NCBI GenBank assembly: GCA_964605665.1
Contig: CAZSDP010000001.1
Location: forward strand, 203,166-267,165
DNA: 64,000 nt
Reading direction: 5' to 3'
Origin: an uncultured Planctomycetia bacterium
GTDB taxonomy: Bacteria; Planctomycetota; UBA8108; UBA1146
A program made the translations under genes and the position numbers. Below are positions 13,038 through 53,085 of the stretch, piece after piece. Under the pieces are notes generated by a model, which made no database searches, was not told the origin of the DNA, and worked only from the letters and a program-made list of their open reading frames with translations. The stretch's first letter is position 1. Each line of letters opens with the position of its first letter.

Positions 13038-13041
13038 TGAG

Positions 13042-14030
<989 letters not shown>

Positions 14031-29240: not shown

Positions 29241-29702
29241 GGGGAAATCTCTCGACTCTCCCAACAGGTATGAATTGACAAAAATCGGGCGGGTCCCCCC
29301 TCCGCATCATCTCCACCCCAATGGCCCCACAGAAGCGTCTTCCACTCCGCTGCCCCCGCTACATCCCAGAAATGCTCGGGAAGCGACCGACTCGCGATGA
29401 GAATCTGGCAATCTATGCGACTGCCACTCTTCCTTGAAAGACTGCCGAAGCGTAGAATGTCCCTCTGCGGGAACGTCTCGCTCGCTGGGGAATACCGTCC
29501 TGTTCTCTTGCCAGTCCTGCTCGACCTCGCTGAGCCGCCCTTTGGCTGAGACCCCGCACTCGTACTCGTGAATTTGTAGAGTGCTACCAATCAACCTGGG
29601 TTCTCGAGTCATACGCCACGCAGCTCCGGGAGAGTCGCCAGTTTCGCGCTTCTGGGTGAAGTGGGAATCAACGATCGCTTCTACAGGTGGGGGAACCGAA
29701 CT

Positions 29703-30776: not shown

Positions 30777-30835
30777 TCCACGATGCAGTGGATTCACGAA
30801 CCACCATCGCCTGAGACTCATCGAGGACGATACAA

Positions 30836-31534: not shown

Positions 31535-32022
31535 GGTCGATCCGCCCCTTCTATTGCATACTGGTACTCACCCTTGGGATGGCGATGCAATGGTCGCTGG
31601 CACCACTTCTTGTTGGTGGCCCCTGCACCGTGGACTTCACCCTACTGATCCTCATTTGGTTTGCTCTGATCGACCGCGTGGAACGGGTGACCTTGCTTTT
31701 GCTCGTGGTCATCGTCTTGCGAACCATCTACGGCGTCGCGACCCCGGTCGAAGCGGCACTACCCCTAATTTCTGGCCTGATTTGGACCAGATTTGCTCGA
31801 AGATTTGTCGATTCGCGGGACGACATACGCCGAATAGTGATCAGCTTGGGGGCGATCCTCATCGCAGGCCTACTGAACAGTATCTTGCTGAGCGAGTATT
31901 GGATCCAGGACATCGACCAGATGGTGGCTGGCGTCATCTACAGCTTGATCGCTGGGATCATGTTGTTCCCTATATTGGACGAGTTGATTCCCCTCTTGCG
32001 AAGCCCCCGATTTCCGATGTGA
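31531..32022 (+). CDS. mreD: Rod shape-determining protein MreD (polytopic membrane protein)
   Basis: 163 aa with 4–5 TM helices. Overlaps the mreC stop. Called from its position in the operon. Confidence 0.55.
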   Translation: MRSIRPFYCILVLTLGMAMQWSLAPLLVGGPCTVDFTLLILIWFALIDRVERVTLLLLVVIVLRTIYGVATPVEAALPLISGLIWTRFARRFVDSRDDIRRIVISLGAILIAGLLNSILLSEYWIQDIDQMVAGVIYSLIAGIMLFPILDELIPLLRSPRFPM

Positions 32023-32126
32023 CGTACTCCAGAGGGTTTTCTTTGACTATTCCCCTCTCACTATTCTCCAAGGTTCACCCCTGCGGTAACATTTCTCCAC
32101 CAAGTCACTGAGAGGATGCTATCGAG

Positions 32127-34271: not shown

Positions 34272-35428
34272 TTTTATCCTCGAGCCAAAATAGTCCCTTT
34301 CTCCTCTTTGCGATGGGCCTCTTGATCTTACTCCTCCTAATCGGTGGAGTGATCTTCGTGCACTCCGCCTCCTCTGGACCTGAAGACTCATTTCCCAGTC
34401 CTTTGGCAAAGGCACATCTCCTACGAATATTTGTTGGCTGTGCCGTGTTCGCGGTATTCGCGTTTAGCGATTATCGAACTTGGGAACGGTGGGCACCACT
34501 CTTGTATTGGATGGGAATTGGCCTACTACTCTTCCTGCTCTTCATCAAAGTTACTGAGGGGGGGGTTGTCCGCTGGTTCAAGATTGGCGGTGTGAGCGTA
34601 CAACCGTCGGAATGGGCGAAACTATTTACGATTTTCTGGCTCGCAAAGATTTTTCACAGCAGTCAAATCCAACGCAGCGGCACCCCTATTCTTCACCCTC
34701 TTCTCGTAGTCCTCCTTCCCTTCCTCTTGATCGCGATCCAACCCGATTTAGGAACGGCTCTCGTGTTCGTACCGATCGCCCTTGCAATCCTCTGGGTCGG
34801 GGGTGCCTCTTTAAAACTGATGGGAGTCATGGGATTGGCCGGCCTCGTATCTGCTGCCGTTGGATATCTCTTTCTCTTACGTGACTACCAAAGAGACCGG
34901 TTGCTGGTTTATATCGGCCGTGCTGGTGAAGATGTAGCAACCGCCCAGAGTTATCACGTCACCCATTCGATGATTTCCATCGGCTCAGGCGGACCATCTG
35001 GAAAAGGTCTCTTTCTGGGGACACATAGTGATCTCGGTTATCTTCCGGAGGATCACAACGATTTTATCTTCGGAGTCATCGGCGAAGAATGGGGACTGAT
35101 AGGGACGCTGGCAACTGTTGCTATATTCATGAGTCTCTACCTCATCTGCCTGAGAGTTGCGTGGAACACCCGAGAACCCTTCGGACGTCTGGCAGTTGTC
35201 GGGATCACCGCCCAATTGGCGTTCCAAACGATGGTCAATTTGGGAATGACTGTCGGACTCGTTCCTGTAACCGGTTTGCCCTTACCACTGGTCAGCTATG
35301 GCGGAACCTCGATGTATATCGTGATGGCGGGTCTCGGATTCATTTTTTCCGTCGCACGACAGCCGGTCGCTAGCCTACACCCTGACGGTCTCCTCGCAGG
35401 AACCTCGTCACCTCAACATCGGCCGTAG
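34268..35428 (+). CDS. rodA: Peptidoglycan glycosyltransferase RodA (SEDS family)
   Basis: 10-TM SEDS protein ending 'GLVPVTGLPLPLVSYGGTSM'. Overlaps the mrdA stop. Confidence 0.85.
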   Translation: MILSSSQNSPFLLFAMGLLILLLLIGGVIFVHSASSGPEDSFPSPLAKAHLLRIFVGCAVFAVFAFSDYRTWERWAPLLYWMGIGLLLFLLFIKVTEGGVVRWFKIGGVSVQPSEWAKLFTIFWLAKIFHSSQIQRSGTPILHPLLVVLLPFLLIAIQPDLGTALVFVPIALAILWVGGASLKLMGVMGLAGLVSAAVGYLFLLRDYQRDRLLVYIGRAGEDVATAQSYHVTHSMISIGSGGPSGKGLFLGTHSDLGYLPEDHNDFIFGVIGEEWGLIGTLATVAIFMSLYLICLRVAWNTREPFGRLAVVGITAQLAFQTMVNLGMTVGLVPVTGLPLPLVSYGGTSMYIVMAGLGFIFSVARQPVASLHPDGLLAGTSSPQHRP

Positions 35429-38879: not shown

Positions 38880-40301
38880 TCAACTCATCTCTGAACTCTG
38901 ATAGAGAGCCGTTGGAATGGCACAGATGCGCTTGGATTCGCCAAATATACCAACTGCAACCCCGTGAAGGACTTTCTTGTCTGTATCGTAACGACGACCA
39001 CGAATAGAGATTCTCGTCGATGATTCAGCGCTTCCATGAATCAGAACAACCGCCCTGGGGTTGGAGGTCCGACTTCCTGTCAACAACTCTAGGCGACTCC
39101 GAAGCCGAGAAATTCGCTGATCGACCCGCTGTTGCTCGGCATAAACTTCGTCTTCATCTTCATAAAAAGCGAGGCGCTTCTCTTCCGATAAGTGCCAGAC
39201 TTTCGAACGATCTTCACCCTCGGTTCCGTGCTTCGCCTTGAAGTCCTCGAAGAGTTTTCCGTGATAGAGGACCCAACGACGAATCTCGCTCTCAATTTCA
39301 TGCATTTGCTCGTTGATCCAACTCGCATGCCCAACCTCGATCGAAACTGGATGAAAGCCCGATGCGACCGCATCTGCGATTTCAGCACCGCTAATCGCCT
39401 CTACCGTTCCTCCCCGAATCACACAACCTTCAGTGGCAGCTTGCACGGTTCCGCGGGAACGACAGCGACAATCGGTCAGACCTTTGATCACGACCACGTC
39501 ATCCCCAGCGGTGATCGAAGTCCCGATTGCAGTTTGGACTTTGACCCTGCCTTCCGCCTCGATGGTCGTGCTCCCTCCCCCAACGATCTCCCCTTCGACT
39601 CGGATGTCACCCTCAGCTCGCAGTTGCACACCAACTCCGATATCGCCTTCGATGATCAGATGCCCACCAACCTCGATCGTTGTCTCCGCAGCAACTGAAC
39701 CAGAGATCTTCGCATCCCCGGGCCAGCGATAAGTCCCCGGCCCGATGCCATGGGAATGCAGGAGCGTTTTGACAATCTTGAGTTCGCTCTCATCTGCATG
39801 GAGAAATCCCGTCGCACGCGCCGTCCATACTCCATCGTCAACGCTGATGCCGCTTCCGGCCTTCAATACGGGAGATTCTTGAGTTGGAGGGGGAGGGACC
39901 GGGTGTCCAAGCACATCGACTCCCACTTGAGCCGCAGCTCCATCGGTCACCTGAAAGAGAGGATCCCCCTGCTTGACGTAGAGTGGGAGAAGCTCAACGT
40001 CGTCGTTCCCGGTTCTCGCTGGAGGGGCGAGCCTGTCTAGTCCCCCACCATGACCAGCGACCGAGGGGGTCCCTCGAGCGACAATCCAAGGGCCCGTATC
40101 CCCCGATTTCCAATCTGAAATGAGCGATTTAAGCGCTTCCTTAAGGACCCCGTGCTGAATTCCACAACCCTTGAGATACCGGTGAAGCGTATGAGCGTTT
40201 AATCCGCGGGGAGGGCGAGGTTCTAGTGGAGAAACCGCCGCTTCTAGACCATCTGCGGCGATTTGGAGGTCGAGAGCAGACCGAATTTCATCGTCCAACA
40301 A
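38880..40301 (-). CDS. DUF342 / FapA-like protein (β-helical repeat plus C-terminal coiled coil)
   Basis: Repetitive 'GxIxxxGDIxVxG' β-helix-like segment ('HLIIEGDIGVGVQLRAEGDIRVEGEIVGGG…'), then coiled-coil 'EIRRWVLYHGKLFEDFKAKH…'. The architecture is reminiscent of FapA. Confidence 0.4.
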   Translation of the reverse strand: MLDDEIRSALDLQIAADGLEAAVSPLEPRPPRGLNAHTLHRYLKGCGIQHGVLKEALKSLISDWKSGDTGPWIVARGTPSVAGHGGGLDRLAPPARTGNDDVELLPLYVKQGDPLFQVTDGAAAQVGVDVLGHPVPPPPTQESPVLKAGSGISVDDGVWTARATGFLHADESELKIVKTLLHSHGIGPGTYRWPGDAKISGSVAAETTIEVGGHLIIEGDIGVGVQLRAEGDIRVEGEIVGGGSTTIEAEGRVKVQTAIGTSITAGDDVVVIKGLTDCRCRSRGTVQAATEGCVIRGGTVEAISGAEIADAVASGFHPVSIEVGHASWINEQMHEIESEIRRWVLYHGKLFEDFKAKHGTEGEDRSKVWHLSEEKRLAFYEDEDEVYAEQQRVDQRISRLRSRLELLTGSRTSNPRAVVLIHGSAESSTRISIRGRRYDTDKKVLHGVAVGIFGESKRICAIPTALYQSSEMS

Positions 40302-40494: not shown

Positions 40495-40516
40495 GGTGTG
40501 AAAAAATGTTCACACC
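40495..40516. promoter_or_regulatory. Perfect 8-bp-arm palindrome GGTGTGAA-N6-TTCACACC (candidate operator) in the divergent region between the DUF342 gene and the kinase/EBP gene
   Basis: Read directly. It lies ~85 nt upstream of the ATG at 40599. Confidence 0.45.
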
Positions 40517-40598: not shown

Positions 40599-43500
40599 AT
40601 GAAACAGATCCAACACGATTACCGATTTCTCAAACCCCTGGGATCGGGGGCGGAGGGAGAGGTTTGGTTAGCAGAAGATCTCCGAAGGGACCAACTTCTC
40701 GTCTCCTGGAAACGACTTTTCGACTCTTCAACAGATCGGAAAATCCCGTCCGAGTTTCGAACGTTGCAAGGGATCCAACACCCAGCACTCGCGACGGTTC
40801 TAGAGAGTGGATTACTTCCCGATGGAGCTGGTCGCTGGTTCACAAGCCCATTTTTTCCTGGTCAATCGATCGACAAATTGCCTCGTCCGATAGACCCCGC
40901 TCTCCTCGAGGGGATTATCCGACGGGCTGTCGAAGGGATTGCCGCGCTTCACCGCTCTGGTTACCGCCACGGAGACCTTAAACCGGCTCACTTGCTTTGG
41001 AATGGCCCCCGACCTCTCGATGTACAGTTGATCGACCTGGGGCATGCTGCGCTCCTCGATGATCCCTCTCCGATCAATGCGGGAACGCCCCCGTACGCAG
41101 CTCCCGAATTGTGGAGCTCTTCACCAAAGCCACGCAGAAACACAGATCTCTACGCCCTCGCGATGATTGCCCTCGAAGTACTCAGAGGAGCACCCGTTCA
41201 ACAAAGTGTTGCACTGAGTGAGTGGCGAGATTGGCACCAACATGGCAACCGCGAGAGTGCACTCTCAGGAATAACAGTGCAGATTCGTGGCGCATTTCAC
41301 GAAGTGATCCGTTCCTGTTTGCAGCCCGACCCAGACGACCGTCCGCTTGACGCGGAAGCGATCTTACAGCAACTGCAACCATTCGAACCGACGAAGGAAG
41401 ACTCAGCGGAACAACGGAGTCGTTTCGATGAACTTCCGTTGATCGGTCGGGATCATTGGTTGACCACAAAGTATCAGGAGCTCAACTCTCCCGACGGTCC
41501 AGCCGGATTCCTACTGCTTGGAGAGGCGCGATCAGGACGCACGCGCCTGGTTCGCGCACTTGCCGCTCGCGTCAAATCTCGCGGCGGAATTGCCGTCGAA
41601 GGGGCATCTTCCGATCCGATCCACCAACGCGCACTTTCCACTCTCTCTCAACAGGCCCCCTGTCGTCTCCTCTGGTTCGACAACGTCATGGAACATCACT
41701 TTGAATCGGTCATCCAGGGGTGGAAACGGGTACGTTCTCTCGCTGGCTCCTCCGAGACTCGGCTCATCGCCATCGTCGACCCCTCGGCAAGTTCCGCTGC
41801 TTTGGCTCATCTAAAGAGAAGACTTGCCGGCATCTCTGGTCCAGTAAAAAGTGAGTTCCTGGCGGGGCTCGACCGCACGAGCTTTCACGAGTTGTTTCAA
41901 TATACTCACCAAAGCAAGGGGCGATCCGCTCTCGCCCCAACTGAAATCGATGCTCTATGGAGAAGTAGCGGCGGATCTCCCGCCAGTCTTGCACCCGACC
42001 CACCTCGCCCACCCTCCTCAAGACACGCACAAAGCGTGCTCGGACCTCGCTTGGGAAGCTGGTTGGCGCACATTCCAACTTCGCTGCCTTGGCATGTGCT
42101 CAAAGAAGCCTCTGGCAATTTAGATGAAGAGCTCGAGGATCTGTTTCTTTCTTGCGGATCAGGTGGACCAACCCGAGTTGAGAGTCGAGGTGAAACTCGA
42201 GTTCTTCCTTGGCCAGCGATCTTCCCCGTTGATTCGTCGATTCGACACCTCGCTGAAACTTGGAGGGATCGTGACGCTCCCACCGGACGATGGGCAGCGC
42301 TCTACCTCGAGGCGATTTCCGGAATCGTGATCTCTTCCGAAGCTTGGAGAATTGAGGTCGAGTCAGCGCGGCTCCGCGAGGATCCAGTGTCCCTACTCTC
42401 TCTGGCTCAAATCGCCCCTCAACCCGAACTGAAACATTGGCTCGAGATCGAAGGACGAGCACTGAGCGGAGAAGCGCAGAGGGTGGTCGATGAGTTGCCC
42501 GATCACCCGAGTGAACTCAACTCAGAACAGAGCATGATTTGCTCCACGATTCTGCAAACGACGGCCGGTCCAGCGCGAGCACTTCCATACGCGCTGCATT
42601 CACTGGAACATGCAGACAAGAGCTCTGTCATGGCGAGAAAGATACACGCAGCCTGCATCGCCCATGAATCTGGGGACGGAAAACTCGTAGACTCCTTAGT
42701 TCGTGATCTCGACAATCGATCAGAATTGAGCCCCCATTCCCTTTTCGAACTCGGGTCACTGCACTTACGACGTGGCCGATTCGCCGAGGCTGAGCCTTGC
42801 TTAAGTCAAGCGTTGAAACGATCGCGAGGCGGCGTTTCACCTCCGATCGTTTTGAAGTGCATGTCAGCACTCGCAGGGCACGCTCGTCTCACTGGTGACC
42901 TGCAGACCGCCCTTCAACGGATTCAAGTCGCGCATCGATACGCATCCTTCTTGAAAGTCGAGGAGGAGAATCCGGGATTGGTGGGAAACCTCGGAGCCAT
43001 TCTTCACTCGCTCCGTCGGTCTGACGAAGCCCTCCTTGCCTATCTGCGTGCCAATCAACTGGTGAAACGACGACCCGACCCAAATCTTGAAGTCCATCTG
43101 CAACTTGGGCTCGGTACAGTTCTGCGAGATCGTGGATCTCTGTTTGAAGCTTATCGCGCTCTGCGACGCTCCGTTCGCCTGGCCCGCACCACCAAAATGG
43201 GGCCGATTCTTGCCGCTGCGCTCGGCAACACCGGCGACCTAGAGCTCCTCATGGGAAACCCTCGAGCTTCGGCAATCCACCGATCTGAACTCCTTGAGTT
43301 GGCGGAAAAGGTCGGTGATCCAGCGCTTCTCCGACAAGCGCGCATCGCACTCGCGGCGGCCTCTTTGCACCTCGGCCAATGGAATCGATCGAATACCCTT
43401 TTGGAAGCTGCTGAAGAAGCCAAAGGAGTCGGAGGCTTACGACTTGATTCTTGGAATCTCGTCGTTCGCGCAGAATGGCTAGACCTTCATGGCGACAGAC

Positions 43501-45473
43501 GAGCTGCACTCACTGCGGCTGCAGCCGCTCTGCGCACTGCGTTTAGGAGCGGGCGTTCCTACATGGCAGCGACATCACTCCGCTTGATCTCTCGACAGGT
43601 CGCTAAACTCGGCGATGTTCCCCGTGCAATTCGACTTCTATCACGGGGACTTGAACTCGCTCGTCAAGACCCATGTCCCCCTCTCGCACGAATCCCTCTG
43701 GAACTCGAGAAACTTCACTGGACCGAGTCGCTCAACGGCGAAAGACGAACCGACCTCCGACTGACCCTCGCTAGGAACGCCAGGCAACACGGCTTACTGG
43801 AAGAATTCCTCGTCGCAACAGCACCGATATCAGACCTGCTTCCAGACGACCTAGCCGAAGCTCAAGGTGGTTTACGCGGCCGCCTCCTTCGCCGCTACGG
43901 TCATGCTGGGATCGACGCATTAGAAAAACGAAGAGGTTTCACGATCGCAGCAAGAGTAGCGACCACCCGCATGGAACTCCAAGTGAGCAGCTCCACGATC
44001 GAGGACTCCCCTGAAGAACCCTCACTTGAATTGCCCGAACGGCTTCAGAATCTATCGACCAATCTAGGGGCCGATGGCGCCTTGGCGTTGTCACGTCCGA
44101 TCAGAGCCTGGAGGCATGTCTGTAAGGTCGGCAATATCCAGTCGCCGGAAGCCTCCGATCTGCCGACGACCACAACTCTCTGGCCTGGCTCGACGTGGTC
44201 GCTGTGGATCCCGATACACTCCTCAACCCCTTGCGCCCTATGGTTGCAGGGAAGTGGTCAAGCTCCCGATATCGAATCGCTCGATCTGCGCGGTTGGAAT
44301 GAGACGATCACAGTTCATAGGTTGAAAAGTAATGAAGAGCGGCTCAAGAAGCTCGTCAAGCAACTACGCAGCGATCTCCAAGATTCTCGAGAAGAGAAGA
44401 TATCAGAGCGAGCCCGCCTAGAAACCCAACTGCTGACTCAACGGCTCGAGGTGACTCAAGATGGAGAGAGCCCCTCGGAGAACTCCATTTGGATCTCGGA
44501 ATCCCCCGCGATGAAAGCTCTTGAAGGACTCCTACCTCAGTGGGCGAAGAGTCAGCTACCGATTCTACTTTGGGGAGAAAGTGGAGTCGGTAAAAGCGCT
44601 CTTCTCTCGCGACTCTCACGCCTCTCTGGAGAATCTCCGATCACTGAAAACTGCGCAGCATTGCCCGAGCCTCTTCTCGAAGCTGAACTCTTCGGATACG
44701 TACCTGGAGCCTTTACCGGGGCAGAACAGGAACACAGCGGTCTCTTCGAGCGCGCTGCTGGAAACTCGCTGATTCTCGATCACCTCGATGAACTTCCCCT
44801 CAACCTACAGGCAAAGCTGTTGCGGGTCTTAGACTCAGGTAAGTTCCGACCTCTTGGCGCAGAAGAGGATCGGCAAGTTCAGTTTCGATTGATCGCCACC
44901 CTCAGGGATGATCCGCAAACCCTGATCGAACAGAATCGTCTGCGCCTCGATCTGTACTATCGACTTCAAGGTATCGAAGGGCATGTCCCTCCTCTTCGCC
45001 GCCGCAGGGAAGAGATCGGCCCTCTTTTGGAAGCGTATCTGAGTGAGGCTGCTCGAATTCAGGTCCGGCCACAGCCAACGATCCACCCACAGGCACTTTC
45101 TATCCTTGAGGCTGCAGACTGGCCTGGGAATGTCAGAGAATTGGTGAATGCCACACAACGCTGGCTGATCCAATCGGTCGATACCCTTCGCCCTGAGGAC
45201 CTAGACCGGGAATTCGTGCAGACTCCTGCAGTGGGTGATCCGTCTGGAAACACCGCATTCACAGAGAGAAAGGACGCAGCATCAACGACCGTCGCCACCT
45301 GGTCGGGAGAGGACTGGCGAACAGAGACGGAGAGATTCCACCGCGGTCTTCTTCGGGCCGCTCTCGATCGCTTCGCTGGGAATCAAACTCAGACCGCTCA
45401 AGCTCTCGGAATCAGTAGAAGACACCTGCAAAATCTGCTCAACAAACTTGATCTCAGGGAGCAAGAGGAATGA
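40599..45473 (+). CDS. Giant fusion protein: Ser/Thr protein kinase – degenerate STAND/AAA_16 NTPase – TPR array – σ54-interaction AAA+ domain – Fis-type HTH
   Basis: Kinase: Gly loop 'GSGAEGEV', 'VSWK', catalytic loop 'YRHGDLKPAHLLW', 'DLG', 'PPYAAPE'. STAND-like: 'LLGEARSGRT'. C-terminal enhancer-binding module: Walker A 'GESGVGKS', 'GAFTGA', 'LDLYYRL…PPLRRRREEI', HTH 'QTAQALGISRRHLQNLLNKL'. Confidence 0.8.
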   Translation: MKQIQHDYRFLKPLGSGAEGEVWLAEDLRRDQLLVSWKRLFDSSTDRKIPSEFRTLQGIQHPALATVLESGLLPDGAGRWFTSPFFPGQSIDKLPRPIDPALLEGIIRRAVEGIAALHRSGYRHGDLKPAHLLWNGPRPLDVQLIDLGHAALLDDPSPINAGTPPYAAPELWSSSPKPRRNTDLYALAMIALEVLRGAPVQQSVALSEWRDWHQHGNRESALSGITVQIRGAFHEVIRSCLQPDPDDRPLDAEAILQQLQPFEPTKEDSAEQRSRFDELPLIGRDHWLTTKYQELNSPDGPAGFLLLGEARSGRTRLVRALAARVKSRGGIAVEGASSDPIHQRALSTLSQQAPCRLLWFDNVMEHHFESVIQGWKRVRSLAGSSETRLIAIVDPSASSAALAHLKRRLAGISGPVKSEFLAGLDRTSFHELFQYTHQSKGRSALAPTEIDALWRSSGGSPASLAPDPPRPPSSRHAQSVLGPRLGSWLAHIPTSLPWHVLKEASGNLDEELEDLFLSCGSGGPTRVESRGETRVLPWPAIFPVDSSIRHLAETWRDRDAPTGRWAALYLEAISGIVISSEAWRIEVESARLREDPVSLLSLAQIAPQPELKHWLEIEGRALSGEAQRVVDELPDHPSELNSEQSMICSTILQTTAGPARALPYALHSLEHADKSSVMARKIHAACIAHESGDGKLVDSLVRDLDNRSELSPHSLFELGSLHLRRGRFAEAEPCLSQALKRSRGGVSPPIVLKCMSALAGHARLTGDLQTALQRIQVAHRYASFLKVEEENPGLVGNLGAILHSLRRSDEALLAYLRANQLVKRRPDPNLEVHLQLGLGTVLRDRGSLFEAYRALRRSVRLARTTKMGPILAAALGNTGDLELLMGNPRASAIHRSELLELAEKVGDPALLRQARIALAAASLHLGQWNRSNTLLEAAEEAKGVGGLRLDSWNLVVRAEWLDLHGDRRAALTAAAAALRTAFRSGRSYMAATSLRLISRQVAKLGDVPRAIRLLSRGLELARQDPCPPLARIPLELEKLHWTESLNGERRTDLRLTLARNARQHGLLEEFLVATAPISDLLPDDLAEAQGGLRGRLLRRYGHAGIDALEKRRGFTIAARVATTRMELQVSSSTIEDSPEEPSLELPERLQNLSTNLGADGALALSRPIRAWRHVCKVGNIQSPEASDLPTTTTLWPGSTWSLWIPIHSSTPCALWLQGSGQAPDIESLDLRGWNETITVHRLKSNEERLKKLVKQLRSDLQDSREEKISERARLETQLLTQRLEVTQDGESPSENSIWISESPAMKALEGLLPQWAKSQLPILLWGESGVGKSALLSRLSRLSGESPITENCAALPEPLLEAELFGYVPGAFTGAEQEHSGLFERAAGNSLILDHLDELPLNLQAKLLRVLDSGKFRPLGAEEDRQVQFRLIATLRDDPQTLIEQNRLRLDLYYRLQGIEGHVPPLRRRREEIGPLLEAYLSEAARIQVRPQPTIHPQALSILEAADWPGNVRELVNATQRWLIQSVDTLRPEDLDREFVQTPAVGDPSGNTAFTERKDAASTTVATWSGEDWRTETERFHRGLLRAALDRFAGNQTQTAQALGISRRHLQNLLNKLDLREQEE

Positions 45474-46200
45474 GTTGCAGATCTTACCGGGAACTTTCGT
45501 TCACACTTCGCCGTCGAAAACGTTGCCTCCACTTGACATATCCCTCGGCAACGCGCCGTAACCCGCCCAACTAAATCGCCACAAACCACCAAATAAACAG
45601 CACTTACAACACCTTCACGATGTCTCTTCGAGGATTGGAACGGCGGGTGCTTTGCTTCACTCGGCTGTAAGAGACCTGTGAGGAGGACAGGGGTGGCCGC
45701 TGGAATCTGGGCTTACTTCGTCGACACTCGCTATGGTGTCGCGAAGGAAGCTCGGGGAGGACTCCGGCGCTGCCCCCTCCTTTTTGCCTTCGATTCCTTA
45801 AATAGATAAACAACCCGACTTGGAGCAGCGGCTTTCGCTCCTTCATTCACCACCTGTCAATGAGTCCCTTCTTGACCGCCGCTACTTGCCTAGATACCCT
45901 CGAACTGTAGCCCTGTAACGATTCAGGGCGCATCATGGGTTCAAAAGAGAGAATCTGCCCGCTGGGACTCCTGAGGTGTGAAGCCTGTGAAATCGGGAGT
46001 TCGTTGACTTCACCGAATCGTGACGGTCTTAACTGGGTGAAGCGAGGCCGATGAGGTATCCAGCGGGGCAGTCCGCTCGTCTTTTCAACTCGATTGGACT
46101 TGAACTCGATGTGACGTGGAGGAGCGCTCTCGGATCACGCAAGAGATCCCCTGTGACCTCCACTTGAGATTGACGTACCTCGATGTGGGAGAGGAATACT

Positions 46201-47427
46201 ATGGCTCAGCCACTCGATTGCCAAAGTCAACCCACTCCAAAATCTCCACGACGCTGGTACCCAAAGAGCTTTGCCCCGCTCGCCGCACTTCTGATTCTTC
46301 TCTCAGCCACCGCGAAGATCGAAGCAAATCACTTTGTTCGTGGTGACGTGAATTTTGATGGATTTGTCACCATCGCTGATGCTTCTCGATTGATCAGAGC
46401 AACCATCCTCGGGGACACCACCATTCAGTTTGCTTGCTCAGATAGTGCGGATGTCGATGACAACGGGATTGTCGAGTTTCTTGATGCGGTTCAGCTGATC
46501 ACATTTCTTTTTGGCGCCGACGGAGCAGGAGCACTTCCACATCCTTATCCTCAACCGGGGGAGGACCAAACCACGGATAGCTTGCCAAATTGCACGGGGG
46601 TCCATACGCCCTGCGTCGGCTCGAATTGTCCAAATGGGTCAGAGATCCCCCACATCTTCTTCTTGAGCCAAGAATCGGATAACCCCCTCGAACTGATGTT
46701 GGGCGCTGGCGGGCCAACCACAGCGATACCGATTCGGATGACCTCGATCGACCCGGTGGAGGGATTCACTCTCAGCATGATCTTTGATCCCCAGCAGATC
46801 GCCTCGATAGATATCGACTTTGAGGGGGGGGTCGCAGCGGAATACAACGCGGATCTCCGAATCTCCCATGTCAGCTCCGCGCATCCTGGCCATGTCTATG
46901 CCTACGTCGTCATGGAAATGTTCCCCCCTTTCACCGAGGAGGCGATCCCCGCCGGATTCGAACTTCTTTTGGGCCACCTGCTCGTCGAAGTTCAAGAGTC
47001 TGTCCCTGTTGGCGCTACTGTTGAAATCGGATTTGAGACTCTCCCACCCGTCGGTCAAGAACCACCGATGCGAAACGAGGTTGTTCAAGGAGGAGGATTC
47101 GGCATTCGCTACCCGATCACCCACACCAGATCATTCTTGGTCGAGCACCCTCATAACCTCTTCATTCGCGGTGACGTTAATCGGGATGGCTACGTCAACA
47201 TTGGAGATGCGATCCCACTACTACAGTTCTTGTTCCTCAACCTTCAGGATGCTCCTCTCTGCTTTGACGCTTGCGATGTCAATGACTCAGGTTCGATCGA
47301 CTTGGGAGACTCCATCACGCTGCTGATGACCCTCTTCCAGCCCCAGCTTGGAATCCAACCTGCTGCCCCATTCCCATATCCATCAGTCGACCCGACCACC
47401 GATTCACTACCCTGCGAGAATTTCTAG
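46201..47427 (+). CDS. Secreted protein with two dockerin-type Ca-binding repeat pairs flanking a β-rich middle domain
   Basis: Signal-like 'LAALLILLSATAKIEA'. Dockerin repeats 'GDVNFDGFVTIAD…DVDDNGIVEFLD' and 'GDVNRDGYVNIGD…DVNDSGSIDLGD'. Each is followed by a 'PFPYP…DPTTDSLP(N)C' tail. The ORF track start at 46183 is an alternative. Confidence 0.6.
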   Translation: MAQPLDCQSQPTPKSPRRWYPKSFAPLAALLILLSATAKIEANHFVRGDVNFDGFVTIADASRLIRATILGDTTIQFACSDSADVDDNGIVEFLDAVQLITFLFGADGAGALPHPYPQPGEDQTTDSLPNCTGVHTPCVGSNCPNGSEIPHIFFLSQESDNPLELMLGAGGPTTAIPIRMTSIDPVEGFTLSMIFDPQQIASIDIDFEGGVAAEYNADLRISHVSSAHPGHVYAYVVMEMFPPFTEEAIPAGFELLLGHLLVEVQESVPVGATVEIGFETLPPVGQEPPMRNEVVQGGGFGIRYPITHTRSFLVEHPHNLFIRGDVNRDGYVNIGDAIPLLQFLFLNLQDAPLCFDACDVNDSGSIDLGDSITLLMTLFQPQLGIQPAAPFPYPSVDPTTDSLPCENF

Positions 47428-47870
47428 AGATTCTCCTGACCTAACTTCGCCGCATCCCAACCTCTCCTCTGTCTCCACCTCGTCAGTTGGGGACCGCAGA
47501 ACTGCTTGAGGTTCCCCACTCACTGCGGATTTCACGATTCTAGAACCACCCCTTAAGTCACGACTCAGCTCCTGCCTTTCGTTCAGATCTCAAAGAGGAT
47601 TTCCTCCTCTATTCAACGGGTGGTCTGAACTTCTCTGGAACCCAACAGCCCCCGGCCACACATTCACCAAGGACCGGAAAAATTGGGGCCTATCGAGAAG
47701 CAATCAGGTGGCAACTTGTGATTCTGCAAACGTTCGTGAAGAGCGTTGAGGATGATCACTCGACAGAATCAGCTCTCCTATCACTAGGTCGGGAGCTCGA
47801 GGGTGAGTCGTGCACGGCATGGGTCAGCATTTCGGATGAGATCGGTCCGATTCCTAGGCGAGAGCGAAAC

Positions 47871-47907
47871 AAAAAAAAAAGAGGCGCAATCGGGGAAATT
47901 GCGCCCC
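47871..47907 (-). terminator. Rho-independent terminator on the minus strand (8-bp GC-rich stem plus T10)
   Basis: Minus strand reads gggcgcaat-ttccccg-attgcgcc-tc-tttttttttt. Confidence 0.65.
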
Positions 47908-48122
47908 CTCGGAAAGAAATGAAGCAAGCAGAGCGTGCTCTACCGAGCCTTGCTCTGTGCAGTCGCGAGAGCGAGAGCCACCGCTCCGGCGACAATCTGC
48001 CCAGTCACCACTTTAGATAGGCAACTGAGCGTTTCCCCCCGAAGGGGAAAAGGTCAGAAAGGAAGAGGCGCCTAGCCAAGGGCTGGCCCCATACTCCTCC
48101 TCTCCTGTCCCTAAAGAGCCCA
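47871..48122 (-). ncRNA. Candidate ~250-nt small RNA (σ54-type promoter to intrinsic terminator). No ORF ≥60 aa; a 5-codon mini-ORF sits behind a strong SD.
   Basis: Region is ORF-free and lower in GC. Promoter motif upstream, terminator downstream. The internal 'ggaggaggagtATGgggccagcccttggcTAG' encodes only MGPALG. No tmRNA, RNase P or SRP motifs recognised. Confidence 0.2.
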
Positions 48123-48131
48123 CCACATACT

Positions 48132-48149
48132 AAGCACGCGAGGTGCCAA
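48132..48149 (-). promoter_or_regulatory. σ54-type −24/−12 promoter-like element (minus strand: tTGGCACctcgcgTGCTt)
   Basis: GG and GC dinucleotides are separated by exactly 10 nt. TGGCAC is exact; the −12 region reads GTGCT against consensus TTGCW. Two GC palindromes (GGGGGACCCCC at ~48191–48201; GGAGGACCTCC at ~48344–48354) lie upstream in the minus-strand sense and could be activator sites. Confidence 0.3.
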
Positions 48150-48329
48150 AACGGCCCACACAACCTAACTTATTATATATCAGGGCCTTAGGGGGACCCC
48201 CTTCCGCCAACAAACAGCCCGACCGGGTAGATTTTAACCGCCCAGTAACCGGGAACACCTAAGCTTCGACAGAAGAAAGACTTACGGATCCGGCCAAAAA
48301 CTTACCGGCCGTACCTCGGAGGGCCTAAT

Positions 48330-48626
48330 CTATAACCGGTCTCGGAGGACCTCCAGGAGGGCGAGTCTTTGTCCGGCCTCAACTCGCGCTCCCTCGCCAA
48401 TCCAGTGCTCCAGAACTGTGCCATCATATGGAGACGAGATCACCACAGAGCCGCTAGAAGCAAGGACAACGGCGAGAGGCTCCCCAGATCGGGCCTGCTC
48501 CCCTTCGCCGACGAGCCACTCCAAAAGCACCCACTCCCTGCGCTCGAGGTCATCGGGTACTTTGACAAATTGTTGGTCTTTGGTGGCCCCCATCGGTACT
48601 TCTCCTCTTGCTGAGGACATCCTCAC
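48330..48626 (-). CDS. Small lipoyl/biotinyl-domain-like protein lacking the modifiable lysine
   Basis: 'VKVPDDLERREWVLLEWLVGEGEQARSGEPLAVVLASSGSVVISSPYDGTVLEHWIGEGARVEAGQRLALLE' aligns by eye to a lipoyl-domain hybrid fold. The 'ETDKA' position reads 'ASSGS'. Confidence 0.45.
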   Translation of the reverse strand: MRMSSARGEVPMGATKDQQFVKVPDDLERREWVLLEWLVGEGEQARSGEPLAVVLASSGSVVISSPYDGTVLEHWIGEGARVEAGQRLALLEVLRDRL

Positions 48627-48674
48627 CTAGGGCCGAAAAGAACGCAAGACGGAGAGCTTCAACGGAAACTTGGT

Positions 48675-49061
48675 TCAGGGCGCACTCGACTCAAGGCGCT
48701 TCTTGCACTCGATACAGTGGGTAGCAAAGGGAATCGCCTCCAAGCGCGCATCACCAATCGGACCTTCACACTCTTCGCAGGTGGTATATGTTCCATCGTC
48801 GATGCGGTGGATCGCTCGCTGGATTTGCTCCAAAGTTGCCCCGCTAGTCCGAAATTGTTCAAAAACAACGGCATCGGCACTGGTATCGCCAGCGAGGTCC
48901 TCAAGATCCGCGATGTGATGACGATCTTCTTGTGCACTCAGGGAGTCGAGCCCTGTCTCGACGTCTTCACTCAAGAGCCGAAGCTGATCAACGAGGCGTT
49001 CTCTGACCTTTTGCAGGTGATCTTCCATCTTGCAGTCTCCCGATAAGGGGCAGTCTCCCAC
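48675..49061 (-). CDS. DksA/TraR-family C4 zinc-finger protein
   Basis: N-terminal coiled coil plus 'CEECEGPIGDARLEAIPFATHCIECK' (CxxC-N17-CxxC). Confidence 0.75.
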   Translation of the reverse strand: MGDCPLSGDCKMEDHLQKVRERLVDQLRLLSEDVETGLDSLSAQEDRHHIADLEDLAGDTSADAVVFEQFRTSGATLEQIQRAIHRIDDGTYTTCEECEGPIGDARLEAIPFATHCIECKKRLESSAP

Positions 49062-49261
49062 GGTTGCTTGAGCCCACCATTAACCCACTGGCAAACGCTG
49101 GTGAATCACAAGTTGCTCCGGACTCTCACGCCGAGCCTCCGAACCAACAACTGCATGAGAATACCATCTTCAAATCCTCCTGGCCGAAATCGCCATCACT
49201 TCTTCGGCTCAGAATCTCAGCAGCCAGCGAAATTTACCGCTGAGATCGACCCGATTGTGGC

Positions 49262-49308
49262 AAAAAAAAAACGGTCCCGATCGCTCGATAAAGGAGCGAT
49301 CGGGACCG
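49262..49308 (-). terminator. Strong Rho-independent terminator on the minus strand (14-bp perfect stem plus T10)
   Basis: Minus strand reads cggtcccgatcgctc-ctttatc-gagcgatcgggaccg-tttttttttt, directly after the stop of the 49332..50693 gene. Confidence 0.75.
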
Positions 49309-49331
49309 TGAATCGGGCGTTAGAGACTCTC

Positions 49332-50693
49332 TTACGGACAGACTGTCGAGGTCAAACAACCAACGCCATCCGCATCCCCACTCGGATCGGGTCCGCAATC
49401 GGGGAAGGGCGCCGCAGGCTCGGGGCCCATCGTGAACAAGTAATTCAAAAGCGTAATCGGATCGGACAGATCCACCCCGCCGCTATCATTGACATCGGCA
49501 GTGTCCAAACATGCGGGCTCAGGCCCCATGGTGAACAGGTAATTTAAGAGGAAGATGGGATCGGACAGATCGATCGTCAAAGATCCGTTGACGTCACCTC
49601 GTACAAAGACTCCTCCGGTGACCCCCGATTCAATTTCAAAAGAGCCGTCGATCACGATCGGTAGAACGCTTGACTCTCCAATACTGATGGCGATCGCCAC
49701 TGGCGGTGCAGGAGCGGGAGGAGAGAGATCGGAAGTGAACGACAAAGGAGTCAAACCGACTGTCGCTGTGGCCGAAACGTCATAGGACGTGACGATAATC
49801 TCGTGCTCAACTCCGACCGGCAAAACGCTGACGGAGCCGCCAGCCATCGGAGACATGATTGCTCCAACCGTAATACCAGTCCCGCCGCTCGGAGCGAGAT
49901 CAGCAAAGAAGAATCCAGCTCCCGCGCCTCCATTGAGCGCTTGCACAGCGGCACCCTGATCCACAGATGTCGCCGTCAGTGAAGAACCATCGTGCAAAAC
50001 GCCCAGACTAAAGCCGTGAACGTCGAGCGAGTTCGTCATCAGTAACGGTACGCTCGCAACTTCCCCTTGGGGCACCGCCGCAATCGGGGCAAATGAAAGC
50101 TCAAATGGAACCACGTCGATATCGATGATGGCGTCTTCTATCGTTGGGAAGAGGCTCGACCCCGAAAGCGGGCCCGCCCCGGGAACGACAACAGTCTGGG
50201 GTGCGGGCTGTCCCGGAATACCAGCATTGTCGCAATAGCTAATTGTCGCGGTGGTTCCGTTTGGGCCGACCAAGGCGTAATCGATATTGACGACCTCATA
50301 GTCCAAGCCTGGGGGCAACTGCGCACAAGATACGAAACAAATGATCACACCTTGGCTCACCCCTCCGGCGTCAGTGTCATCTCCGCCGTAGAAGTTGATC
50401 TCATTGAAATCAACCGGGCTTCCATTCTTGGCGACTTCGCAAGTCGCGCCGGTCGTCGCGCTGATCGGCTGTACCAGGTTGAAGTCATGACAGACTCCGA
50501 GTGACCACCCACCCAGCGGGTCAGCCCCGTCGAGAACATCGAGGAGCGCAACCAGGCTGATTTCCTCACCAGAGGAACCGCTCAATCCCTGGGGAAACCT
50601 CAAGGTGTAGTTTTCACCTTGGGCCAACGCCTGCGAGGGTAAAAGGAGGGAAAGGCAGATGAGCAGTAGTGAAGCTCCGATAATGCGACACAT
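49332..50693 (-). CDS. Secreted β-rich protein with a C-terminal dockerin-type repeat pair (paralogue of 46201..47427)
   Basis: Signal peptide 'MCRIIGASLLLICLSLLLPSQALAQ'. Internal duplicated 'GxSLGVxHD' domains. C-terminal 'RGDVNGSLTIDLSDPIFLLNYLF…DVNDSGGVDLSDPITLLNYLF' then 'PAAPFPDCGPDP'. Confidence 0.6.
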   Translation of the reverse strand: MCRIIGASLLLICLSLLLPSQALAQGENYTLRFPQGLSGSSGEEISLVALLDVLDGADPLGGWSLGVCHDFNLVQPISATTGATCEVAKNGSPVDFNEINFYGGDDTDAGGVSQGVIICFVSCAQLPPGLDYEVVNIDYALVGPNGTTATISYCDNAGIPGQPAPQTVVVPGAGPLSGSSLFPTIEDAIIDIDVVPFELSFAPIAAVPQGEVASVPLLMTNSLDVHGFSLGVLHDGSSLTATSVDQGAAVQALNGGAGAGFFFADLAPSGGTGITVGAIMSPMAGGSVSVLPVGVEHEIIVTSYDVSATATVGLTPLSFTSDLSPPAPAPPVAIAISIGESSVLPIVIDGSFEIESGVTGGVFVRGDVNGSLTIDLSDPIFLLNYLFTMGPEPACLDTADVNDSGGVDLSDPITLLNYLFTMGPEPAAPFPDCGPDPSGDADGVGCLTSTVCP

Positions 50694-50842
50694 TCCAATT
50701 CCTCGTTTCTCTTCAGCTGTAGAGGAGGATCGAGTCGATCTCTCCAGCCCCTCAGCTCTCAGATGCTTGAACTCTCCAGAATTAGAGGTCCTCAAGTGAT
50801 TTCAAACTCCGAAATTGGGTCCGAGCGTGACCCAAGCGGCCA

Positions 50843-50880
50843 TTATAGCACAATTTGCCCCAATTCACCCTCTCCCGCTG
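50843..50880 (-). promoter_or_regulatory. Candidate σ70 promoter with an extended −10 (TGcTATAAT) for the dockerin-protein gene
   Basis: Minus strand reads 'ggcaaattgtgcTATAATgg'. Gives a ~140-nt 5' UTR. Confidence 0.3.
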
Positions 50881-51139: not shown

Positions 51140-51826
51140 ATGAACTCGGAAGCCAACCAAAGCTCAGACAATCCTGGAGACCTCTCGACCCTTCAAAAGG
51201 TGAGCCGCGTTGAACCGGTCGGCGAGCTGAAGGAGAAGGGAATCTCGAGGGTTCAGCTGATCAGCCGCAGCCAATTTGAGACGGTCATCAGAGATGCGGT
51301 TGCGAGAGAGATTCTCAATATTCTCGACCAGGTCGAGCTCTCAGCTGAGGAACAAGAAGTCCTTACAGAGCGAGCAATCGCAAGACTCTCTGGAGAAGTT
51401 CCACAGATAGAAGCCAAACCATCAGAGTCGAACAGTTCCAACCCCTCAAGTGAAGAAGTGACTCCTTCCCCTTCGACAACTTCTGACTTCGACCCAACGG
51501 CGTTCAAGCAGAAGATCATCGAAGAAGTAGGCGGCTTAGTTTCTCAGAACTGGAGAGAAGAACTAAAGTCCGCTCAAGTCTCTCAATCAAACCATATCGG
51601 TCGACTCGAAGACCGCATCGATTCTCTTATGAATGCGCTCGACCAAATTGAAAAACTGATGGAGAAGTCCGATTCCACGCCTGCTGACGAGACTCACTCA
51701 ACTCAATCAAATGGCACGAGCAACGGAACTCTAGGTGGAATGAAAAATGAGCTCCTTGAGCAGCTCTTCGATGCGAACTTAGTACTCCGAGAATTGGAGG
51801 CTGGCGAAGACCTCGACGGAGAATAA
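51140..51826 (+). CDS. Acidic Ser/Glu-rich hypothetical protein (candidate partner of the downstream actin homologue)
   Basis: 228 aa. Low-complexity acidic 'SESNSSNPSSEEVTPSPSTTSDFDP' and a coiled-coil-like C-terminal half. SD 'gggagga' upstream. Confidence 0.45.
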   Translation: MNSEANQSSDNPGDLSTLQKVSRVEPVGELKEKGISRVQLISRSQFETVIRDAVAREILNILDQVELSAEEQEVLTERAIARLSGEVPQIEAKPSESNSSNPSSEEVTPSPSTTSDFDPTAFKQKIIEEVGGLVSQNWREELKSAQVSQSNHIGRLEDRIDSLMNALDQIEKLMEKSDSTPADETHSTQSNGTSNGTLGGMKNELLEQLFDANLVLRELEAGEDLDGE

Positions 51827-51972
51827 ACAGAAAGTGACGACTGAGAATACCTCTGGACTTCGGTTCACATGTTGGTGAATTGCTCCCCACCAACGTCTTA
51901 CCGAAAACGGACAATCCAAATTTGAAATTCAGGAGCCGCACCACAAGGTCGCGATAGAAGAAGAGGAGATCG

Positions 51973-53085
51973 ATGAGCACCAAGACCCAAGGAAATGGCA
52001 GCAAACCAGCTTCGAAAACTCGAAAGGCCTCTACGGCCAAAGCGAACACCAAGACGGAGATTCTTCATGTCGGAATCGACCTTGGTACCTCACGATCTGC
52101 TGTTGCGACCTCAACGGGAGTCAGAGACTTGATTGCGAGCGTTGTCGGCTGGCCAAAAGACACGATCTCCGCCAAGGCATTCGGAAAAGGAACCCAATTT
52201 GGTGGTGACGTCCTGAAAAACCGGCTCGCACTCGATGTTTGCTGGCCACTCGCTGACGGAAATCTCATCTTCACCGACCTCGAAGGTAAAGAGCAAACCC
52301 GAGCACGTCGAGCAGCAGAAGAGCTGATGAAAGAGATCAAGCGGCTAGCCCAACCAGCTAAGAACGAATCGATCTATGCCGTGATCGGAGCCCCCGCTGA
52401 GGCCACTCGAGAGAACAAGCAGGCAATCATCGAAATAGCTCAAAAAGCCGGCATTGACGCGGTCATGGTCGTTTCCGAGCCATTTGCTGTGGCATACACT
52501 GTCGATGCCTTGATCGATTCAATCGTCATCGATATCGGAGCCGGAACGATCGATCTCTGCCGAATGTCAGGCACATTACCCACCGAGGAAGATCAGGTCA
52601 CCGTCTTCAAGGCTGGAAACTACATCGATCAAGAAATTGCAAATCGAGTCCGCGAAAAGTATGGAGACGCTCAGTTTTCCATCAACATGATTAAGCTAGC
52701 CAAGGAACGGTTCTCTTCCGTTACCCAAAACGCCCAAAGAGCTCTGGTGACCTTCCCCGTGGATGGTGTACCGACCGAGCTCGACATCACCAAAGAAGTC
52801 CGCGAGGCGGTAAATTTGATTGTCCCTGAGGTTGTTGAGGGAATTCGAAAGCTCGTCGCGACCTTTGATCCTGAGTTCCAAGAGCGAATTCGAAACCGGG
52901 TCTTCGTATCCGGAGGTGGATCACTGATCTACGGAATTCGCGAGGCGATCGAAATTGGAATGCAGGAGATTGGTGGAGGCAAAGTCAGCCTCGTCGATGA
53001 GCCAGTTTACGCCGGTGCTGACGGAGCGCTCAAACTTGCCCAAGAGATGCCTGCGAAGTTCTGGGCCAAACTCAAGAGCAACTAA
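51973..53085 (+). CDS. Actin-family ATPase, MamK-like (distinct from MreB) with a basic N-terminal tail
   Basis: 'ILHVGIDLGTSRSAV' (phosphate 1), 'SVVGWPKD', 'YAVIGAPAEATRENKQAIIEIAQKAGIDAVMVVSEPFAVAY', 'IVIDIGAGTIDLCRMSG' (phosphate 2), 'VFVSGGGS'. The order and spacing match, by recollection, MamK-type actins rather than MreB. N-terminal 'KPASKTRKASTAKANTK'. Confidence 0.65.
   Translation: MSTKTQGNGSKPASKTRKASTAKANTKTEILHVGIDLGTSRSAVATSTGVRDLIASVVGWPKDTISAKAFGKGTQFGGDVLKNRLALDVCWPLADGNLIFTDLEGKEQTRARRAAEELMKEIKRLAQPAKNESIYAVIGAPAEATRENKQAIIEIAQKAGIDAVMVVSEPFAVAYTVDALIDSIVIDIGAGTIDLCRMSGTLPTEEDQVTVFKAGNYIDQEIANRVREKYGDAQFSINMIKLAKERFSSVTQNAQRALVTFPVDGVPTELDITKEVREAVNLIVPEVVEGIRKLVATFDPEFQERIRNRVFVSGGGSLIYGIREAIEIGMQEIGGGKVSLVDEPVYAGADGALKLAQEMPAKFWAKLKSN

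Follow-up and report, generated by a model that had tools for sequence, protein, structure and literature searches.

Within a 64-kb window of planctomycete DNA (the window being the whole stretch that was analysed), the interval 46201–50693 extends from the start codon of one gene (gene A) to the start codon of a second, convergently oriented gene (gene B), and analysis of the two products suggested that they are probably Ca-dependent adaptor scaffoldins of a non-cellulosomal, 'planctosome'-like network, exported and regulated as proposed below. Both proteins combine cohesin (Coh) and dockerin (Doc) modules on one polypeptide, in the order signal peptide-Doc-Coh-Doc in A and signal peptide-Coh-Coh-Doc in B. 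A preliminary description of the interval had recognised two secreted, paralogous dockerin proteins, had taken a cohesin-like partner to be absent from the window and had treated the block as self-contained; its observations were largely right, and about half of its interpretation stood: it was correct in the matter of dockerins, paralogy and export, and mistaken on the missing cohesin and the self-contained operon.

By predicted structure, the β-rich middle domains shared by A and B are cohesin modules. AlphaFold2 models built from orthologue alignments (predicted local distance difference test 81.8 and predicted template modelling score (pTM) 0.77 for A; predicted local distance difference test 79.2 for B) were compared with the PDB by Foldseek, and the top matches of both proteins were cohesins or a cohesin dyad (E 5e-8 to 4e-13). 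The 50 best PDB matches of A were all cohesins; B was matched across both of its β domains by the type II cohesin dyad 3l8q (E 4e-13) and reached template modelling scores of up to 0.80 against single cohesins. The best structural matches of the two proteins were the cohesins 5nrk, 4uyp and 5lxv and the 3l8q dyad, and the fold of the middle domains conformed to the nine-stranded β-sandwich (jelly-roll) of solved cohesins, with a sequence identity to characterised cohesins of 9–17%. Family profiles also matched solved cohesins (4uyp_A, 1.1e-5; 3l8q_A, 4.2e-5); two structure-comparison methods and a profile search thus agreed on cohesin identity. The Pfam Cohesin model (PF00963) matched 5 of 12 B-family proteins (best E 5.7e-6) and 2 of 17 A-family proteins (best E 1.5e-4). 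Structure prediction of the middle domains, which had been suggested as a check, therefore contradicted the claim that a cohesin-like partner is absent from the window: the cohesins are the middle domains of A and B themselves.

Alignments and hidden Markov models (HMMs) bore out the similarity of these internal domains, which had first been noticed in the stretches GFTLSMIFD of A and GFSLGVLHD of B. BLASTP aligned A with B across 241 aa, middle domain included (E 2e-19), HMMs of single modules cross-matched (A-Coh versus B-Coh2, 4.8e-11; B-Coh2 versus A-Coh, 4.7e-7), and the dockerin module HMMs did so between the A and B families at 1e-14 to 2e-28. Moreover, the first cohesin of B is homologous to its second (B_Coh2 HMM match, 1.3e-24). 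The paralogy of the two proteins thus extends to their middle domains.

The dockerin repeat pairs were equally well recognised. A matched Pfam Dockerin_1 (PF00404) with 51.6 bits (cut-off 22.9) in two modules, one at each end of the protein as had been described, and contained four canonical DxNxDGxxxxxD-type Ca loops (residues 49, 84, 325 and 359). The dockerin of B was recognised by HMMs of A-family dockerins (1e-22 to 2e-28); its loop at residue 400 is canonical, and its first loop, at residue 367, is degenerate at position 6 (L for G). Dockerin_1 matches were found in 16 of 17 A-family and, at E <= 0.01, in 7 of 12 B-family orthologues, and family profiles matched solved dockerins at 5e-8 and 1e-6 (B-family profile, 1.1e-6). 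A helix was predicted behind each Ca loop in the AlphaFold2 models of A and B, and the dockerin of B is a near-perfect internal duplication in which DLSDPIxLLNYLFTMGPEPA occurs twice. Thrombospondin-type-3 or generic EF-hand repeats were considered and rejected, with EF-hand models remaining below their cut-offs and dockerin models scoring higher, so that the repeats hold as dockerins. The quoted repeat motifs and the conserved Cys-containing, Pro-rich tails behind them were both present as described: the tail showed no variation across 17 A-type and 12 B-type orthologues, nor did two Cys per dockerin, the first of which precedes the second Ca loop while the other closes the tail (in the second dockerin of A the invariant residues are C354, P390, P392, D397 and C405). 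The same tail arrangement ended 45 of 59 otherwise unrelated dockerin-bearing matches and so marks a planctomycete dockerin subtype. In each dockerin the Cys pair is probably linked as a disulfide clasp, which fits an oxidising extracytoplasmic location.

Both proteins are predicted to be exported by the Sec pathway, in agreement with the earlier description of A and B as secreted. The hydrophobic 12-mer of the A signal peptide was kept in nearly all orthologues, and a hydrophobic core followed by AxA and Q recurred across the B family. Tat export of A (RR in SPRRWYP) was rejected, as the motif was not conserved among orthologues, and so was lipoprotein anchoring of B (LLIC), which is not a lipobox. 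No catalytic domain was found in A or B, nor any Pfam domain besides the cohesin and dockerin modules.

A and B belong to a (Coh)1-4-Doc family that has expanded in metagenome-assembled genomes (MAGs) of marine Planctomycetota, and within it they are the pair with a conserved position. Named relatives were uncultured Planctomycetota MAGs throughout, mostly marine, and loci fetched from metagenomes and MAGs for comparison carry L-numbers (L001, L002 and so on). A B-family motif scan with one genome per species returned 75 loci, several per MAG, and module HMMs identified 256 module-bearing open reading frames (ORFs) in 82 loci, including 107 with the architecture Coh-Coh-Doc, 56 with Coh3-Doc, 39 with Coh-Doc and 12 with Doc-Coh-Doc, as well as 28 larger proteins with a terminal dockerin. 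Counted in the fetched loci alone, each MAG contained 9–15 module-bearing ORFs. Cohesins and dockerins were present in comparable numbers (9–21 versus 9–20 modules per MAG sample), and nearly all cohesin proteins of the family terminated in one dockerin. A search of the B cohesin pair against 1.84 billion cluster representatives gave 524 clusters with lengths of ~270, 440 and 590 aa. While the paralogues are scattered, the A/B pair is single-copy and conserved in position. The same dockerin and tail occurred on PKD, TIG, FG-GAP, M12B peptidase, serpin and peroxidase proteins, and the same dockerin subtype also on HYR, LTD, CotH and Kelch proteins. Routine annotation misses cohesins as divergent as these, and the labels given to the proteins read 'hypothetical' or no more than 'dockerin-containing'. 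In many MAGs, Coh3-Doc genes are directly followed by a gene for a conserved giant protein (ORFs of ~1,690–1,745 aa; L013, L014, L017, L018, L023–L025, L028, L030, L031, L033 and L042). Its members showed two weak cohesin-like stretches plus a terminal dockerin, and the one from L013, the sole member scanned, contained Big_5, FG-GAP and TIG domains; this protein could form a large node within the Coh/Doc network.

In the network that we propose, the dockerins of the family would bind the family cohesins in a Ca-dependent manner, and A, with two plugs and one socket, and B, with one plug and two sockets, would thereby serve as adaptor scaffoldins, joining one another, their paralogues and further proteins from the same genomes whose last module is this dockerin subtype. 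The bodies of these further proteins are adhesin-like (HYR, LTD, TIG, FG-GAP, Kelch) or of protease or serpin type, and together the parts would make up an extracytoplasmic, non-cellulolytic complex resembling the 'planctosome'. Adaptor scaffoldins expand the number and types of dockerin proteins that are incorporated (PMC11557425). As in the cellulosomal adaptor scaffoldins ScaA and ScaB of Acetivibrio cellulolyticus and ScaC of Ruminococcus flavefaciens, cohesins and dockerins stand on one exported, non-catalytic polypeptide in A and B, and it is the cohesins of those scaffoldins that are the best structural matches, at the low identity given above. In contrast to them, however, A and B belong to a Gram-negative planctomycete rather than a Firmicute, have no SLH or sortase anchor, carry dockerins with a Pro-rich tail and two invariant Cys and, in the case of A, follow the order Doc-Coh-Doc with a dockerin at both ends. 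Unlike in cellulosomes, whose dockerin-bearing subunits are plant-cell-wall glycoside hydrolases, no glycoside hydrolase was seen among the dockerin-bearing relatives in the sample of genomes examined.

A 'planctosome' has been proposed for the freshwater Nemodlikiaceae on the basis of LTD and HYR proteins with Coh/Doc modules (Andrei et al. 2019, PMC6461901), the model consisting of one large LTD anchor with one cohesin and a Doc-HYR-Coh adaptor (PMC6461901). Both that system and the one described here are hypotheses, and both involve non-cellulosomal Coh/Doc modules in Planctomycetes and partners with LTD, HYR and peptidase domains; A and B differ in being small and in consisting of Coh/Doc modules only, themselves without HYR or LTD, in belonging to a marine family of at least 9–15 genes per MAG, and in forming a pair within a conserved regulatory locus. 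The non-cellulosomal Coh/Doc protein of Archaeoglobus fulgidus (PDB 2xdh), by comparison, is archaeal, a single case and without a Cys-clasped tail. The dockerin of R. flavefaciens ScaA is described as having an intramolecular clasp in which N- and C-terminal contacts stabilise the module (PMC3821032). The Cys pair and tail of A and B could play the same role, with the difference that the clasp suggested by the invariant residues would be a covalent disulfide accompanied by a Pro-rich extension of ~25 residues.

The preliminary description had also listed a candidate σ54-dependent small RNA (sRNA) between A and B, and comparison across lineages upheld it as a well-supported, undescribed σ54-dependent RNA, to judge from its conserved promoter, terminator and compensatory changes. 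It was conserved in five lineages; besides the window, L002, L006, L007, L008 and L082–L096 carry it, with a length of ~160 nt in short-form lineages and ~250–300 nt in the window. The promoter elements TTGGCAC and TGC were invariant in alignment A3, and an 18-nt motif, CUUGCUUCAUUUCUUUCC, was invariant across five lineages whose A proteins are ~37–47% identical to that of the window. A metagenome scan gave 14 more copies, all with the hairpin and T-run and 13 with a GGCAC-N5-nTGC promoter, the fourteenth being cut by the contig end. RNAalifold predicted 50 pairs from nine sequences, 14 of them with compensatory changes, and left the invariant 13-nt stretch UUCAUUUCUUUCC single-stranded; the terminator hairpin had a predicted energy of −20 kcal/mol. 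In all metagenome loci with sufficient flank (12 of 14) the sRNA lay downstream of a B orthologue; this did not hold for the sRNA of L082, where B is absent. An Rfam search of the region gave no family match and two sub-threshold chance matches on terminators. Duplex energies of the sRNA with 50 translation-initiation regions in the window were within the random background, and across 1.43 Mb of sequence the complement of the seed, GGAAAGAAATGAA, with up to one mismatch allowed, had no occurrence outside the sRNA gene. A small ORF antisense to the 3' motif (MKQAER...) was discarded: the peptide diverged after six residues, and the hairpin kept its compensatory changes.

Upstream of A lies a gene for a Ser/Thr kinase fused to a TPR/MalT-like region, a σ54 AAA+ activator domain and a helix-turn-helix (HTH) domain (Pfam Sigma54_activat, 154.5 bits; Pkinase, 75.1 bits; HTH_8), which directly adjoins the A orthologue in six lineages (the window, L002, L004, L006, L008 and L082). 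From the conserved motifs, this activator likely drives two σ54 promoters, that of the leader in front of A and that of the sRNA: the kinase-fused protein would act on the promoter and leader before A and on the sRNA beyond A, while B would use its own σ70-type promoter plus a strong terminator. The GG..AC-N..TGC pattern of the A promoter was invariant in five lineages (alignment A4). About 130 nt upstream of it stands the palindrome 45490–45506, a candidate upstream activating site, which aligned in five lineages (A4), was also present in L082 and had no other exact match in the window. A second palindrome (40496–40515), ~85 nt upstream of the start of the activator gene, was conserved in L004. 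The two palindromes, GGAACTTTCGTTCACAC and GTGTGAAAAAATGTTCACAC respectively, share the half-site TTCACAC, and both are candidate binding sites of the HTH domain of the activator. The leader RNA behind the A promoter comprised 31 predicted pairs, six with compensatory changes, and may be either the 5' untranslated region of A or a separate small RNA; a small ORF in it, following GAGGAGG, was not conserved and was rejected. A σ54 promoter was also sought upstream of B, but none was conserved; instead, an extended −10 element (TGnTATAAT or TGnTATGAT) aligned in the window, L002 and L007. The B terminator (−32.9 kcal/mol, z −9.9 versus shuffles) insulates the DksA-type gene behind it from B, and a terminator scan gave no recognisable terminator for gene A itself. 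As had been claimed, two strong hairpin-T10 terminators are present; however, both are on the minus strand, at the B end (49271–49309) and at the sRNA end (47878–47910), and they bracket the small island between A and B rather than the ends of the block.

σ54-dependent sRNAs encoded next to their activator are known from Qrr/LuxO and GlmY/GlrR. The sRNA of the window resembles these in its −24/−12 promoter, intrinsic terminator, conserved single-stranded stretch and proximity to the gene of an enhancer-binding protein, and differs from them in that it has no Rfam match, that a Ser/Thr kinase and a TPR region are joined to the activator in one protein, and that in some lineages the sRNA is not beside an activator gene.

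The island between the two convergent genes had the geometry described earlier, with a DksA/TraR-type gene, a small barrel-sandwich gene and the non-coding stretch 47428–48329, all on the minus strand. The first product is a member of the DksA/TraR family by its match to zf-dskA_traR (PF01258; 48.4 bits, cut-off 24.9), which confirmed the zinc finger previously assigned, whereas a canonical DksA was not supported by TIGR02420 (62 bits, under the cut-off of 115.5). Its CxxC-N17-CxxC pattern and the DLEDLA (DxxDxA) motif were conserved in four of six lineages, the other two reading DLEDID. In L082, from a more distant genome, the DksA-like gene (13017–13853, minus strand) has a long Lys/Ala-rich, histone-H1-like N-terminal extension with KKKSAAKK repeats before the zinc finger. 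The barrel-sandwich protein matched Biotin_lipoyl (PF00364) with 30.1 bits (cut-off 22.1), and the absence of the lipoyl lysine that had been remarked on held in four of four lineages: the modifiable Lys (E-x-M-K-M or D-K-A) is replaced by SSG, GEG, SDA and SSG in an alignment whose reference row was a BCCP-like consensus.

On the other side of B stands a divergent pair of genes coding for an acidic coiled-coil protein and a MamK-family actin-like protein, which neighboured the B orthologue at all loci whose flank was long enough. The MamK-like gene (51973–53085) scored 390.1 bits against NCBIfam NF040964 (cut-off 400) and 67–82 bits against MreB models, and no magnetosome genes were found near it; the true MreB is encoded at 29661–30776 (465.5 bits). 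The coiled-coil protein is acidic, Ser/Glu-rich and without a family match. The locus lay beside or within ~5 kb of mreBCD-pbp2-rodA in six cases (the window, L006, L039, L082, L085 and L087); in the window, an mreB-mreC-(mreD)-pbp2-rodA operon (29661–35428, plus strand) precedes the activator gene by ~5 kb. Divergent from the activator gene is a FapA-family (flagellar assembly protein A-like) gene (38880–40301, minus strand), which is the neighbour in L004 and L005 as well. The order activator-A-sRNA-barrel-sandwich-DksA-B-coiled-coil-MamK-like was shared by the window, L002, L006 and L096 and was split over two contigs in L004 and L007. The expected synteny in related genomes was thus found in several lineages, although the picture of a self-contained, separately regulated module was only partly upheld, as the conserved block reaches from the activator to the MamK-like gene and collinearity between the window and L006 continues far past it over PGK, inositol phosphatase, aminotransferase and PALP genes. 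In L082, activator-A-sRNA-DksA was kept without B, and in some lineages A, DksA and the barrel-sandwich gene are all absent from the locus while the MamK-like/coiled-coil genes, B and the sRNA remain and abut rodA-pbp2-mreDCB. What persisted most was the linkage of the activator to A, and of both the sRNA and the MamK-like pair to B.

Because the collinearity runs over housekeeping genes, synteny alone is no proof that the DksA-like and lipoyl-like proteins act with A and B; any link between these two conserved neighbours and A or B is hypothetical. There is close to an even chance that these genes and the sRNA are housekeeping or independent regulators that occupy the island through conserved gene order in this clade, without acting together with A or B. 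Besides the long collinearity with L006, this is supported by L008, where the barrel-sandwich gene is present and the DksA gene is missing between it and B, by the short-form lineages, which lack both genes beside B, by the DxxDxA tip that the DksA-like protein keeps from a general RNA-polymerase-binding factor, and by the insulation that the strong terminator of B provides. Arguing the other way are the constant position of the sRNA downstream of B wherever the flank suffices and the presence of the DksA gene behind tandem B paralogues in the distant loci L039 and L043, despite differing surroundings.

The window essentially equals a contig of JGI metagenome 3300002231 (L001). The T-run of the sRNA terminator is T10 in the window (47868–47877) and T12 in the JGI contig (L001 12810–12821), and one of the 408 residues of the gene A product differs between the two copies, suggesting that the window comes from a closely related, non-identical assembly or strain. 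The best start codons of A (46201) and B (50693) are preceded at 6–7 nt by a Shine-Dalgarno-like GGAGAGGA or GAGGAA, and that of B is also supported by the JGI gene call.

Features of the A/B locus, in window coordinates.
Feature	Position	Strand	Remarks
Ser/Thr kinase - TPR/MalT-like - σ54 AAA+ activator - HTH	40599..45473	+	1624 aa
Palindrome GGAAC-N4-GTTCACAC	45490..45506		just 3' of activator stop codon
σ54-type −24/−12 promoter of A	45636..45651	+	TGGAACGGCGGGTGCT
Structured leader RNA after A promoter	45663..45800	+	GGCUGUAnnnGACCUGUGAGGAGG...; alignments A4, A6
Gene A	46201-47427	+	408 aa
Gene A signal peptide	46201..46326	+	residues 1-42, ...LAALLILLSATAKIEA/NH; n-h-c pattern
Gene A dockerin 1 and Pro-rich tail ending in Cys	46330..46590	+	residues 44-130
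Gene A cohesin	46633..47154	+	residues 145-318; contains GFTLSMIFD
Gene A dockerin 2, tail PAAPFPYPSVDPTTDSLPC, plus stop codon	47155..47427	+	second Dockerin_1 stretch, two canonical Ca loops
sRNA	47868..48121	-	~250 nt; 14-bp hairpin + U10 at 47868-47910
σ54 −24/−12 promoter of sRNA	48133..48148	-	TGGCACCTCGCGTGCT; one mismatch to consensus
Small barrel-sandwich (biotinyl/lipoyl-like) protein	48330..48626	-	Pfam Biotin_lipoyl
DksA/TraR-family C4 zinc-finger protein	48675..49061	-	likely start ATG 49028, 117 aa
Intrinsic terminator of B	49262..49309	-	16-bp perfect stem + U10
Gene B	49332-50693	-	453 aa
Gene B dockerin, tail PAAPFPDCGPDP...C...C, plus stop codon	49332..49610	-	residues 362-453
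Gene B cohesin 2	49620..50108	-	residues 196-358; contains GFSLGVLHD
Gene B cohesin 1	50109..50621	-	residues 25-195; contains GWSLGVCHD
Gene B signal peptide	50622..50693	-	MCRIIGASLLLICLSLLLPSQALA/Q; hydrophobic core then AxA/Q
Extended −10 element, candidate σ70 promoter of B	50842..50850	-	TGCTATAAT
Acidic coiled-coil protein (228 aa) and MamK-family actin-like protein (370 aa)	51140..53085	+	divergent pair beside B

Several observations weigh against reading A and B as regulated adaptor scaffoldins. The window's own A and B had no match to Pfam Cohesin even at E <= 1, and, of the dockerin check against Pfam, the part concerning A stood while B alone scored 19.4–19.6 bits, just under the cut-off. 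No SLH domain, sortase signal, lipobox or transmembrane segment was found in either protein. Module HMMs detected no cohesin or dockerin genes other than A and B within the window, so that the proposed partners would have to be encoded elsewhere in the genome. With regard to regulation, the count of σ54 patterns in the whole window was not above chance, and the case for the σ54 promoters therefore rests on their conservation across lineages; the terminal hairpin of the A leader was no more stable than shuffles, leaving a discrete terminator unsupported. Finally, the long-range collinearity weakens a functional reading of the neighbourhood.

An unlikely alternative is that A and B, with three dockerins and three cohesins between them, are a dedicated matched pair that forms a closed heterocomplex or lattice in the envelope, functionally connected with the MamK-like actin, its coiled-coil neighbour and the elongasome, and are not general enzyme-recruiting adaptors. 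The complementary valence of Doc-Coh-Doc and Coh-Coh-Doc is in keeping with this, as are the single-copy, position-conserved state of the pair in contrast to its scattered paralogues, the constant company of the coiled-coil and MamK-like genes and the proximity of mreBCD-pbp2-rodA in six loci; an intramolecular dockerin-cohesin contact could, in addition, account for the pTM of A, which is high for a protein of three modules. However, several lineages have B without a nearby A, the conservation of the neighbourhood may be mere collinearity, and, as MamK-like actins are cytoplasmic and A and B exported, a transmembrane connector would be needed, of which none was identified. The repeated adjacency of the locus to elongasome genes also underlies a wider version, which we regard as slightly more doubtful: instead of recruiting enzymes, the (Coh)n-Doc family, whose conserved core would be the A/B pair, would build a self-assembling envelope lattice or matrix in which each subunit carries plug and socket, its production being wired to growth through the kinase-fused σ54 activator, the two σ54 RNAs, the MamK-like actin with the coiled-coil protein, and mreBCD-pbp2-rodA.

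It is a little more improbable again that the cohesin- and dockerin-like modules no longer bind each other and that A and B are generic Ca-binding β-sandwich adhesins, for instance for polysaccharide or cells. Peer et al. are said to have reported in 2009 that non-cellulosomal cohesin- and dockerin-like modules without known partners are widespread, and both the low identity to characterised cohesins and the failure of the window proteins to match Pfam Cohesin would suit such a loss of pairing. Against it, cohesins and dockerins have expanded together in comparable numbers per MAG sample, almost every cohesin protein ends in one dockerin, and the Ca loops and the duplicated dockerin halves of B are preserved. 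The notion of A and B as cargo or surface proteins that carry dockerins alone, with a cohesin-bearing scaffold encoded elsewhere and 46201–50693 as a self-contained surface operon set, is very improbable, for although the dockerins are real, no separate cohesin-only gene lies in the window and several lineages keep the arrangement, two structure comparisons and a profile search identify the middle domains as cohesins, the conserved block exceeds the interval, and B occurs with the sRNA elsewhere without A, DksA or the barrel-sandwich gene.

We favour A and B as adaptor scaffoldins of a 'planctosome'-like network. While no long-standing question is resolved by the findings on A, B and the sRNA, the latter represents a new family in a phylum in which almost no sRNAs are known, and the divergence of the cohesins implies that systems of this kind are probably under-counted. 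If the modules bind as predicted, marine Planctomycetota have a Coh-Doc assembly made mostly of enzyme-free connectors, which would take the principle of the cellulosome into a setting that is Gram-negative and non-cellulolytic and would offer many new orthogonal plug-socket pairs for protein engineering.

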